Source: Chlamydiales bacterium
Lineage (GTDB): Bacteria > Chlamydiota > Chlamydiia > Chlamydiales > JBDQID01
Length of the DNA stretch: 21,700 bases
Assembly (NCBI GenBank): GCA_047611865.1
Contig: JBLFWS010000044.1
Coordinates: 1-21,700, forward strand
Reading direction: 5' to 3'
The notes beneath the pieces are model-generated. The model made no database searches. It was not told the DNA's origin and worked only from the letters and a program-made list of their open reading frames with translations. The number at the start of each line of letters is the position of its first letter. The stretch's first letter is position 1. A program made the translations under genes and the position numbers. This document shows, one piece after another, positions 17,725 to 20,928 of this stretch.

Positions 17725-20700
17725 TCAAGCACGTGGGCTACCCTCTTCGTCGGAGATCTTAGCCATTTCATCTTCTAAACCTCGAAAACCACTTTTGAAA
17801 GCAATATCTAGTGCTAATCTTTCTCCGTTAGTTTGAGTTAAAACGTTACGAAAATTTTGTTCAACAGCATTCCAATCAACTTCATCTTTTCCTAAGATAT
17901 GATTCTTATAGATCTCGATAATTTCTCCACCAACGAATTGCGGGGGACTTATTCTTGCTTTTCTTGAGAGGACATGTACCGATCCTATTTCCCGATAGGT
18001 TTTATCAAGTTCTGCTCCCACTTTAATCAAATGAAGGTTGAGCTCTAAGAGTTGAAAACACGCGTCTGCAATCTTACAATGCTCTTCGTCAGGAAAATGG
18101 GCAGCAGCTGTTTCCATAGCTTCTTTGAAGGAAGCTGCTATTTCGGGAATGTCCCATCTCGCGATCTTTTCCCTGGTCTCTGTAGAGAGATGGGTTTTCG
18201 CTTGGGGGAATACCATCCATCCATACCGAGCATAGCGTAAACCTTGACAATCAGGAGATCCTGAAGGGGAGGGGTGAGGAAGTGAAAGGCCATTATCGAT
18301 GAGGATGAATTTTTTCTTATCGTCACTAATGGCTAAATTGTGCCCATGTCCATCCATCTGCATCATGGCAATGTGTAATAATACGGAATCCATTGCACTG
18401 TCGGGGAGCTTTTCCAGATCTTCTCCAATGCTGAAGGAGTCGTCAGAATAGGCGACCTTTTTTTGTAATGACATGACTTCACCGCTGTCTCCCAAGAAAG
18501 GGTGAGTGGATGAAATCAACAGTGTCGGGGGAACACCACAATCAAATCCCAGGTGAGCCTGTAGGATATAGGCTGCTACTTCCCTGATAGCGCCCTCTCC
18601 TGGCTCTATGCCTTCTGGCAAGTGCTGCCTTTTTACTTTTATTTTAGTACGGGATTTTGGCATCGCCGGCTCAAGACCTATTGGTTTGGCTACAAATTGG
18701 TCATTGACCATAAAGAGCTTGCGGGCTTGCGGGTCACGGAATTTTTCATTTGCGAAGCGGGCAAATTCCTGCACATAAGCTGCGGGGTTCTCAGATTTCA
18801 GGTGTTTTATTCGGTCAATTTGTGCCAGATTCTCACTGTCAAGGGAGTGAAAGATCTCCAATGGGTTTCTAATTTTGTTAATTGATTGTTCAAGTTTTTC
18901 TAAAAGGGGGGCTCTATCAAGGATGACTTTTTTAGTTCTTGATAAGATAGCTCGTGCAGGTCTAGAGAGAGAGTCTATATACCCTGGATTGAGTTCTGGA
19001 GAAGTCAATCTTTGAACATATCCCTCCAGTTCATAACGGCTACTTTTATCAAGGACTGACACATTAAGATCACTCATCATAAGGTCACAAAAGGTCCGCA
19101 TATCTCTCTGTATGAGCCTTAATTGTTGCGAATATAGGTCCTCAAAAATCTTGTGTAATTTCTTATAGAGTGCGAAATCTGAAGCAGATAGTTCTTTGAG
19201 AATGTCCGATAGTACTTTTAAGCGATCCTTTTTTTCGCAAATGTTGCTGCCCAACCCACTAAGATTTATTAAACTGTCATCGAAATTTAGCCTCTTGGAG
19301 ACTAGTTTTCGCTCATTTTTCTCTTTTCTCATAAGCACTAACTTTGTTAACTGCTCAAGGGCGAGATCATTGTTTTCATCTCCCTGAACCAGGATTGGAA
19401 TCTCCGCTATGAGGCTTTCTCGTTCCGCTTCTGAAATTTCCATTTCAGGGTCCAAGAGTCTTACTAATGGCTTTCTACTATCTAGGGTGGGGAGCTCCCA
19501 AATTAGTAGGTTAAGGCGGCTTACTAAGGCCGATTTTTCTTCGTCATTGGCAGTTTCGGATAGTCCGAATGCCTCGAGGAGTCGGTACTCTTCATTCATC
19601 TTAGTAAATTCCGATTCAGGGTCTCCAATCTCGTTTAAGTTTTTTAGAAAGAAATGAAAGTTCCTGCTTTTTAGCTCTTCAAGTTCCAAGAATTTCTCTA
19701 GAGCGATCTTGATGCCTTCTTGAATAGAATCCACCTCTGATCTTACGGATAAGATTATTTCTCGAGAGGCCTCGTCAATATCATCATCATCCGACTTGGA
19801 GAGGAGTCGATCAAAATAGCTCAGAGGGGAGAAATCTTTTGTAAAAGCTTCTTCATCGTCAACTAGTCTGATTTTATTCATGAGCTGTATGATTTTTTGC
19901 TGGCCTTGCCCTTTAATTCCTTCGATAGCTTTTTGGATATCGGGATCCATCATTTCTATTTCTTCACCTTTAAGTTCTTCGAGCAGAAGGGGGAGAAATG
20001 GACGTAAATCAAAGTGAATTTTAGATAAAAGCTGATACAAATTATCAATTTTTTGGATGTCAGATTTTTCTTTGGAATTGAGTCCAGCCGTTAGGGCAAG
20101 GATTTCTGATAACTGCCCATTGATCTGTGACAGAGTTTCAGCATTACTCACATGGTCTTCGTTTAAAGTGGAGCGAAGTCCAATAAGACCTTCCCATAGT
20201 TCAGGGCATTCGTCAGGGCTGAGAGTTTTAATTAAGGCGTTAATGAAGCCAAGGGTGTTCATCAACTGGCGCATAATAAATTCTTCTTCCCCATTTATAG
20301 CAATATGCGACAAGCCGGGGACAAAAAATGCTCCTCCTGATCCTTTGTTTGGGGTTCTGGGACGTAAGCGTTCCACCAGTTCCCCAAAGCCTTCTTCCCA
20401 AGAAAGTTTAGGGTCACTACAAACTCTTGATGCAACCATTGTATCTATAGCATCATTTAAAAGTTCTGGGTTATTGTGTTGGAATTGGGATAAGAATTCA
20501 TTGGTCAAAGCAAGGCTTTTTTTCTGTTCTACCTCGAGATAGGCCTTATGCAGTTTCCCTAGGCGCTCTCTATGAACAGTCATTTTAGTGGTAAATTTTT
20601 CACAGGGATTTTGAAAGTGGATATTTAAAATATTATCTCGTAAACGATTAATGCTTTCACTGGATGAAATCTGGTGGATGCTTCTGTTAGAGAGGTCGAG

Positions 20701-20928
20701 TGGCAGTTTAGCGTGGTGAAAGGTATTTTCGATCCAATCAAGTGATTGTAGTATGGCATTTCGTACTTTTTCATCATTGCCCTCTACATCAACATTTTCT
20801 TCTGAGCTAGCAGGATAGATCCTATCATCTTTTTCTATCAGAGTGCTGCCTGGACTGTAATTTTCCAGAACTGTCAGGTTGTGTTGTGGCAAAATATCAT
20901 CAGAACAAGAAATCATGTGACCTCGCAT
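17725..20928 (-). CDS. Type II phosphatidylinositol 4-kinase-like (PI3/PI4-kinase superfamily) candidate effector (1067 aa)
   Basis: Motifs in the order of eukaryotic type II PI4K (plant gamma-like): KGSGGAFFV, FVAKP..EP, GEGAIREVAAYIL, GVPPTLLI, SLQK, MDGHGHNL, LIDNGLSLP, WMVFPQA. Confidence 0.85.
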   Translation of the reverse strand: MRGHMISCSDDILPQHNLTVLENYSPGSTLIEKDDRIYPASSEENVDVEGNDEKVRNAILQSLDWIENTFHHAKLPLDLSNRSIHQISSSESINRLRDNILNIHFQNPCEKFTTKMTVHRERLGKLHKAYLEVEQKKSLALTNEFLSQFQHNNPELLNDAIDTMVASRVCSDPKLSWEEGFGELVERLRPRTPNKGSGGAFFVPGLSHIAINGEEEFIMRQLMNTLGFINALIKTLSPDECPELWEGLIGLRSTLNEDHVSNAETLSQINGQLSEILALTAGLNSKEKSDIQKIDNLYQLLSKIHFDLRPFLPLLLEELKGEEIEMMDPDIQKAIEGIKGQGQQKIIQLMNKIRLVDDEEAFTKDFSPLSYFDRLLSKSDDDDIDEASREIILSVRSEVDSIQEGIKIALEKFLELEELKSRNFHFFLKNLNEIGDPESEFTKMNEEYRLLEAFGLSETANDEEKSALVSRLNLLIWELPTLDSRKPLVRLLDPEMEISEAERESLIAEIPILVQGDENNDLALEQLTKLVLMRKEKNERKLVSKRLNFDDSLINLSGLGSNICEKKDRLKVLSDILKELSASDFALYKKLHKIFEDLYSQQLRLIQRDMRTFCDLMMSDLNVSVLDKSSRYELEGYVQRLTSPELNPGYIDSLSRPARAILSRTKKVILDRAPLLEKLEQSINKIRNPLEIFHSLDSENLAQIDRIKHLKSENPAAYVQEFARFANEKFRDPQARKLFMVNDQFVAKPIGLEPAMPKSRTKIKVKRQHLPEGIEPGEGAIREVAAYILQAHLGFDCGVPPTLLISSTHPFLGDSGEVMSLQKKVAYSDDSFSIGEDLEKLPDSAMDSVLLHIAMMQMDGHGHNLAISDDKKKFILIDNGLSLPHPSPSGSPDCQGLRYARYGWMVFPQAKTHLSTETREKIARWDIPEIAASFKEAMETAAAHFPDEEHCKIADACFQLLELNLHLIKVGAELDKTYREIGSVHVLSRKARISPPQFVGGEIIEIYKNHILGKDEVDWNAVEQNFRNVLTQTNGERLALDIAFKSGFRGLEDEMAKISDEEGSPRA

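Follow-up and report, generated by a model that had tools for sequence, protein, structure and literature searches.

Protein-kinase-like folds tolerate inserts in several loops, and the closest fold to the protein described here is that of the type II phosphatidylinositol 4-kinases (PI4Ks) PI4K2A and PI4K2B (PDB 4hnd, 4pla, 4yc4 and 4wtv), the former of which has a palmitoylated Cys-rich motif. We examined a 1067-residue protein, P0001, encoded by an open reading frame (ORF) at 17725..20928 (-) of a 21,700-nucleotide stretch of DNA from a Chlamydiales bacterium (assembly GCA_047611865.1, contig JBLFWS010000044.1, positions 1 to 21,700; hereafter the window). P0001 shares with PI4K2A and PI4K2B the fold, the Lys, the Glu, the D...N loop and the IDNG motif (Z 21-22.5) at about 18% identity, but its glycine loop (G-loop) and its ATP-binding Lys are 547 residues apart rather than about 14, its catalytic loop reads DGH where the relatives have DRH, and it has an N-terminal module and a C-terminal tail in addition. 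There are no adjacent cysteines in its translation. We think it probable that P0001 is a one-chain type II PI4K-like kinase whose N-lobe combines two pieces that an insert of about 540 residues sets far apart in the sequence. Coordinates given below for parts of this gene are all on the (-) strand, and residue numbers follow the initial annotation of this DNA; the true numbers are possibly 4 lower, if the ORF begins at its fifth residue, M5.

Residues ~745-1040 (17809..18696) form a type II PI4K-like kinase core, as profile comparison, AlphaFold2 (AF2) modeling and VIA-align all indicate. A homologue search returned 170 proteins at E <=0.001, of which 38 reach 1e-10 and five reach 1e-30; almost all of the 170 align to this region only. 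A profile built from 73 of these proteins identifies human PI4K2A with E 6.9e-35, and the Pfam family PF00454 is recognized in 61 of them at E 0.001 or better; a phmmer search of P0001 itself against the PDB gave no match. In the AF2 model, residues ~780-1040 mostly have a predicted local distance difference test score (pLDDT) above 85, and a Foldseek search with the model has PI4K2A or PI4K2B as each of its top 12 matches (E 1.4e-8). VIA-align superimposes 637..1014 of the model on 101..454 of the 4yc4 chain with Z 22.5 and a root-mean-square deviation of 2.8 over 263 residues, the next folds (Fam20, CtkA, actin-fragmin kinase, HipA, LepB and MavQ) following at Z 8.7-12.

The catalytic residues of this core are retained throughout the family, with K748, E783, D859, N864, I877 and D878 invariant in all 73 aligned sequences. 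K748 (18685-18687), the ATP-binding Lys, lies in the beta3 strand FVAKP (residues 745-749, 18682..18696), which is modeled as a strand by AF2; D859 and N864 begin and end the catalytic loop DGHGHN (18337..18354), and I877 and D878 belong to the metal-binding IDNG (residues 877-880, 18289..18300). The initial annotation had already called the protein type II PI4K-like, an identity that the profile match, the VIA-align score and the invariant residues bear out, and it had put GSGGAFFV at 196-203, FVAKP at 745-749, the Glu at 783, DGHGHN at 859-864 and IDNG at 877-880, all of them correctly. It had also remarked that the catalytic loop is usually DRH, and position 860 is indeed R in 63 of the 73 sequences and G in seven, including P0001, P0003, P0004 and P0013.

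The evidence for a split N-lobe begins with the spacing between the aromatic residue of the G-loop and the Lys of beta3, which we counted with a profile of 45 canonical relatives in the 122 of 150 matches where both positions were aligned. In 120 of these it ranges from 9 to 36 residues, with a mode of 14 (75 proteins), and the sole outliers are P0001, at 547, and its orthologue P0003, at 546, which is 66% identical to P0001 across its full length; the wide gap described in the initial annotation is thus exceptional among the relatives. In the remaining 28 matches the G-loop was unaligned; most of these are cut at the N-terminus or have diverged too far for their Lys to be aligned. The four that are uncut and have an aligned Lys are P0004 and P0006, discussed below, and P0013 and P0130, which have degenerate local loops. 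Among kinase ORFs found in genomes of the order, 21 of the 22 with an aligned Lys show the G-loop motif or its end at most 30 residues before it, the exception being L096, a P0046-type protein with a spacing of 32 residues.

HMMER reports the G-loop of the two outliers as a separate upstream stretch, with E 0.0019 for P0003 and 0.018 for P0001 in a one-sequence search, and it coincides with GSGGAFFV at residues 196-203 (20320..20343) of P0001. A strict G-loop pattern arose in 3 of 20,000 shuffles of residues 1-744, so the motif exceeds chance expectation; a loose pattern arose in 18.6% of them, and the motif alone is therefore insufficient evidence. The same arrangement is found in P0004 (965 residues, 30% identical), with GAGGGKFVQG at about 164-176 and LFAKP about 490 residues further on, and in P0006 (1058 residues, 24% identical), with GSQSSYFVPG at about 164-176 and LFAKP about 590 residues further on. 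The motif, extended as FV[PQ]G..H.A, lies at the same relative place in all three of the other long forms (66, 30 and 24% identity to P0001), and G196, F202, V203 and H208 are invariant across the four. Within the first 735 residues of P0001, the windows at 181-225 are the best conserved relative to P0004 and P0006.

Comparison of profiles places this block in the N-lobe of the short, canonical proteins. With hhalign, residues 149-205 of the long forms (20314..20484; a helix before the G-loop, beta1, the G-loop and beta2) match 14 close short forms, in their N-terminal regions, with a probability of 87.6 and E 3.5e-6 over 50 columns. When windows were slid along residues 1-740, only 1-60 and 141-240 matched the N-terminal region of the short forms, and they did so in the same order. 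Residues 6-40 (20809..20913) align to positions 3-37 of the short-form template at E 2.8e-4, and this N-terminal module, with the pattern NL..L.nY..G..L...dG.i common to the short homologues, is also recognizable by eye and is modeled by AF2 with pLDDT 75-89. The windows at 141-240 align to template positions 113-165 at E about 3e-3. No window from 201 to 740 did better than E 0.13, and reversed controls reached 0.015 at best; a profile comparison of residues 680-744 with G-loop regions showed no likeness (E 0.34). The two pieces are therefore homologous to, and collinear with, the parts of a canonical N-lobe, and on these comparisons residues 149-205 would be the true N-terminal part of the lobe.

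In the full-length AF2 model (mean pLDDT 66.7), FVAKP at 745-749 is the first strand of the lobe, and there is no local beta1-beta2, suggesting that the C-terminal piece alone misses part of the fold. A beta1-beta2 pair just before residue 745 was the outcome that the initial annotation had named as speaking against a split lobe; the model has a helix there, at 733-739. Residues 165-219 have pLDDT 27-44, below 50 throughout, with coil at 189-213, and are left unplaced, so we infer the reunion of the two pieces from homology. The model was made with alignment A3, in which MAFFT placed the short-form G-loops just before residue 720, and this may have disfavoured docking of 196-203. The proposal in the initial annotation that the insert sits in the beta2-beta3 hairpin is supported at the level of sequence, by homology, collinearity, conservation and the lack of a local G-loop; in three dimensions, AF2 did not place the segment that would show it.

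The insert itself spans residues 206-744 (18697..20313) and has strand-like ends, LSHIAIN and RKLFMVNDQ, whose pattern is conserved among the long forms and which may pair as a two-stranded stalk extending the hairpin. Its core, 213-735, consists of helices throughout in the AF2 model, with pLDDT mostly 35-80, and its composition is acidic and rich in L (15.9%), E (11.3%) and K (7.5%), much as the initial annotation had described it. No internal repeats were found in the insert, and its only match in Pfam was HEAT_EF3_GNC1, at E 0.029. A phmmer search of the PDB gave E values of 1 or worse, NCBIfam returned no family and the ESM Atlas no usable match. When the PDB was searched with the profile of alignment A2, API5 (E 0.043) and PI4K2A (E 0.23) came up, neither of them significantly. 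In a wide VIA-align comparison, residues 211-306 resemble generic helical bundles only, at Z 8-9, which is within the noise range for helical models. We also considered an Inc-type membrane protein and rejected it, as the maximum 19-residue hydropathy is about 1.0 and there is no hydrophobic segment. Read from its position only, the insert would serve in targeting, partner binding or regulation, with targeting or regulation the most likely.

Smaller insertions at the same place are seen elsewhere in the family. The beta2-beta3 loop is longer by about 20 residues in P0026, P0046 and P0066 and by about 33, which are helical, in the P0022-type proteins (P0022/L092); these sister-clade insertions of ~20-35 residues suggest that, among the bacterial members of the family, this loop is a hot spot for insertions. 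We built a tree from post-beta3 columns only, with 69 rows, leaving out P0002, the 100-residue fragment P0005 and eight matches shorter than 300 residues. The four long forms lie on one side of a branch with a support of 78 in the Shimodaira-Hasegawa-like approximate likelihood ratio test (SH-aLRT), and none of 500 label shuffles was as clustered. A single origin of the long forms is compatible with this result but not proven by it.

These observations suggest the following arrangement. A canonical chlamydial PI4K2-like ancestor would have had its beta2-beta3 hairpin interrupted at the tip by an insertion. Residues 149-205 would now provide beta1, the glycine loop and beta2 along with the N-terminal helix before them, and beta3 with K748, helix C with E783 and all that remains of the domain would come from residues 745 onward. 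The hairpin at 149-205 would fold back onto beta3 and cover ATP, and K748, E783, D859, N864 and D878 would catalyse phosphotransfer. The insert would leave and re-enter through LSHIAIN and RKLFMVNDQ and project from the back of the N-lobe as a separate helical domain. The protein would enter the host cell, with type III secretion the probable route, and would act there as an effector that phosphorylates phosphatidylinositol or a host protein. We infer secretion from the eukaryote-like domain, the patchy distribution and the presence of a type III system in the genome. Plant type II PI4Ks are reported to phosphorylate proteins (PMC12953816; PMC3741686), so the substrate may be phosphatidylinositol, as in the closest fold, or a protein, a choice that the loss of the DRH arginine leaves undecided.

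Several of our results weigh against a reunited N-lobe. AF2 left the G-loop motif undocked, and the Arg of DRH is lost in P0001 (G860). P0001 alone matches PF00454 at E 0.0049 and 17.2 bits (residues 773-888), under the Pfam cut-off of 27.1 bits. HMMER by itself is weak for the N-terminal piece, and finds none in P0004 or P0006. There are only four long forms, one of them P0001, and the support from conservation and from the tree (SH-aLRT 78) is thin. Part of this suits a reading in which the core at ~700-1067 works, or persists as a pseudokinase, with no glycine loop at all, 196-203 being a decaying relic of the ancestral N-lobe or serving another purpose and 1-744 being an N-terminal extension. 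The undocked motif and the loss of the DRH Arg in the long forms agree with it, degenerate G-loops do exist in the family (P0013 and P0130), and kinase-like enzymes with very short G-loops are known, SidJ among them (PMC6858067). All of the catalytic residues are retained, however, and neither AF2 nor profile comparison shows a beta1-beta2 substitute near K748; a relic, moreover, would hardly be expected to be the best conserved block of the N-terminal 735 residues in proteins of 24-30% overall identity. We regard this explanation as unlikely, and still favour an N-lobe reunited from two pieces.

Low AF2 confidence at 165-219 is also compatible with the two pieces joining only conditionally or between chains: the helical insert would keep the G-loop hairpin apart until a host factor or a membrane binds, or two molecules would exchange hairpins, so that the enzyme would be on only in the host. 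All of the sequence evidence for the split fits this too, and there is precedent for host-factor activation of effector kinase-like enzymes in calmodulin and SidJ (PMC6858067), but low pLDDT is equally to be expected from a depth of four sequences alone, and we consider such joining quite improbable. A particular form of it would make the helical insert a switch that decides whether the glycine-loop hairpin docks on the remainder of the kinase, completion of the N-lobe awaiting the binding of a host protein or membrane to the insert or the release of the conserved small neighbour described below. This too seems doubtful to us, yet, if true, it would be a kinase whose activity depends on when its own fold is completed. 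That the gene is instead an artefact, an unrelated N-terminal gene misassembled with or fused to a kinase gene in a draft genome of 272 contigs with a high-copy 61-base repeat just upstream (21092-21152), can be dismissed, because the frame is open throughout, a single 16,414-base contig in each of two runs covers 17200-21118 with zero differences, a third run has identical pieces over the gene, no joints are seen, and the three other long forms, from other assemblies, have the same layout.

Translation of P0001 probably starts at M5 (20916), since GAGG lies 4 nucleotides upstream and both the database copy of the protein, P0002, and the orthologue P0003 begin there. A promoter scan did no better than shuffles (9 found, 9.7 expected). 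The dispersed 61-base repeat at 21092-21152 occurs 40 times or more among the contigs of the genome, at 95-100% identity (113 candidates); public assemblies break at it, contig depth jumps about 100-fold there, and it has no significant fold (z 0.58). Just past it, a 159-residue ORF at 21176-21655 (+) matches only the C-terminal part of Exo_endo_phos (134-225 of 225, E 2.9e-10) and looks truncated.

The genome is that of an environmental chlamydia; it comprises 3.59 Mb in 272 contigs and is 95.5% complete. In rpoB it shares 77-83% identity with many genomes of Chlamydiota, Parachlamydiales, Rhabdochlamydiaceae and Simkaniaceae, and it encodes a type III secretion ATPase (TIGR02546, 627.5 bits against a curated cut-off of 604.75 bits). 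Of 401 genomes of the order, 22 contain the kinase domain at a threshold of E 1e-5. Residues 1-740, compared with 400 genomes of the order, occur at a meaningful level in none of the 399 besides their own; the one short match elsewhere is in G043, where G043:C8:8178-8468 (L090) is 25% identical to residues 529-628 (E 3.8e-5) in a 243-residue frame with one stop. When we looked for further long forms, a homologue search gave P0002 and P0003 and no others, whether the query was P0001 or alignment A2; genome contigs searched with P0001 and metagenome contigs searched with A2 yielded none, and P0006 as the query against metagenome contigs brought up nothing beyond the 1750-base end of a contig. 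Each of the other long forms is a singleton from a metagenome assembly, either without a protein name or labelled hypothetical. The genome that encodes P0001 also has a canonical paralogue of 448 residues (L007, contig C135, ORF 1147-2493 (-)), in which GFHGSVFL is followed after 10 residues by VWKP.

A small ORF of 133 residues lies 56 bases downstream of the kinase gene, at 17267..17668 (-). Relatives of it directly follow the end of the P0006 gene, as two tandem copies (BLASTP E 3e-5 and 1e-4), and another follows a P0022-type kinase in G120 (E 3.4e-5); P0159 is 61% identical to it and lies on a contig equal in length to that of P0003. The related ORFs encode 100-160 residues (L120:413-898 and 1004-1384, and L092:1118-1417 (-)), and ten positions, F31, D34, G35, F39, E50, G52, V66, P68, F77 and F81, are invariant in four sequences. 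A profile of the small protein matches 9 of 400 genomes, 7 of which have no kinase match, the gene there following other ORFs of 380-470 residues. Searches of the PDB and NCBIfam with the small protein gave no family. That it is a partner or chaperone of the kinase is a guess.

The window holds a second kinase, an 800-residue protein at 3226-5628 (-) with a C-terminal eukaryote-type Ser/Thr Pkinase domain (residues 531-746, E 2.4e-29) and a 530-residue N-terminal region with no family match. A 3074-residue protein at 6689-15913 (+) has an N-terminus resembling a signal sequence and a FecR domain at 85-176; it also contains a long acidic tract rich in Glu and Ala, and the TbpB beta-barrel model matches it in three stretches (E 2.2e-31). 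The 159-residue ORF at 16550-17029 (-) appears by eye to be a leucine-rich-repeat fragment (LDLSDC..L), with no Pfam match at E 0.01, and a 120-residue ORF at 549-911 (-) has an HTH_38 domain (E 1.5e-12), of the kind found in transposase N-termini.

Among described and deposited proteins, the short chlamydial PI4K2-like proteins (P0007-P0020, the P0022-type and L007) have the same module, helix, G-loop and core as P0001, in the same order. They are 450-650 residues long and have a contiguous G-loop, with a spacing of 9-36 residues as against the 547 of P0001, and the sources call them hypothetical. Phosphoinositide-kinase effectors reportedly occur in other intracellular bacteria, namely LepB and MavQ of Legionella and Risk1 of Rickettsia. 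LepB (Z 9.8) and MavQ (Z 8.7) are weak fold matches to P0001 and distantly related to it, and in the accessible part of the open literature no split N-lobe is reported for LepB, MavQ or Risk1. More broadly, our searches of the open literature, in its main texts, turned up no kinase N-lobe interrupted between beta2 and beta3 by a folded domain as large as these ~540 residues, and no chlamydial type II PI4K-like proteins. On our sequence comparisons the split layout appears to be real and rare within a known kinase family, and the two pieces would meet in space to form one lobe. Domain-based annotation misses such proteins, as the score of P0001 below the Pfam threshold indicates. If the pieces do reunite, the protein shows how far an N-lobe sheet can be interrupted, and it would be a natural example for the engineering of split or switchable kinases.

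Large interruptions of related folds have been described. In Lmor_1975, a predicted effector kinase of Legionella, a large alpha-helical insertion in a PI-kinase-like fold hides the homology (PMC9758233), but that insert is an interlobe one of about 150 residues, whereas the ~540 residues of P0001 lie within the N-lobe sheet, between beta2 and beta3. The same paper describes split HipA kinases (HipS with HipT, and lpg2379 with lpg2380) whose N-terminal part is encoded by a separate gene (PMC9758233). Those are two genes and two polypeptides, while P0001 is one chain with an insert and belongs to a different family (Z 9-10 to HipA). SidJ has a 48-residue insertion in the catalytic loop (PMC6858067). 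Chlamydia trachomatis is reported to depend on host PI4KII-alpha (PMC13573033). If our reading is correct, the organism studied here would, in contrast to that dependence on the host, be a chlamydia that makes a type II PI4K-like enzyme of its own.

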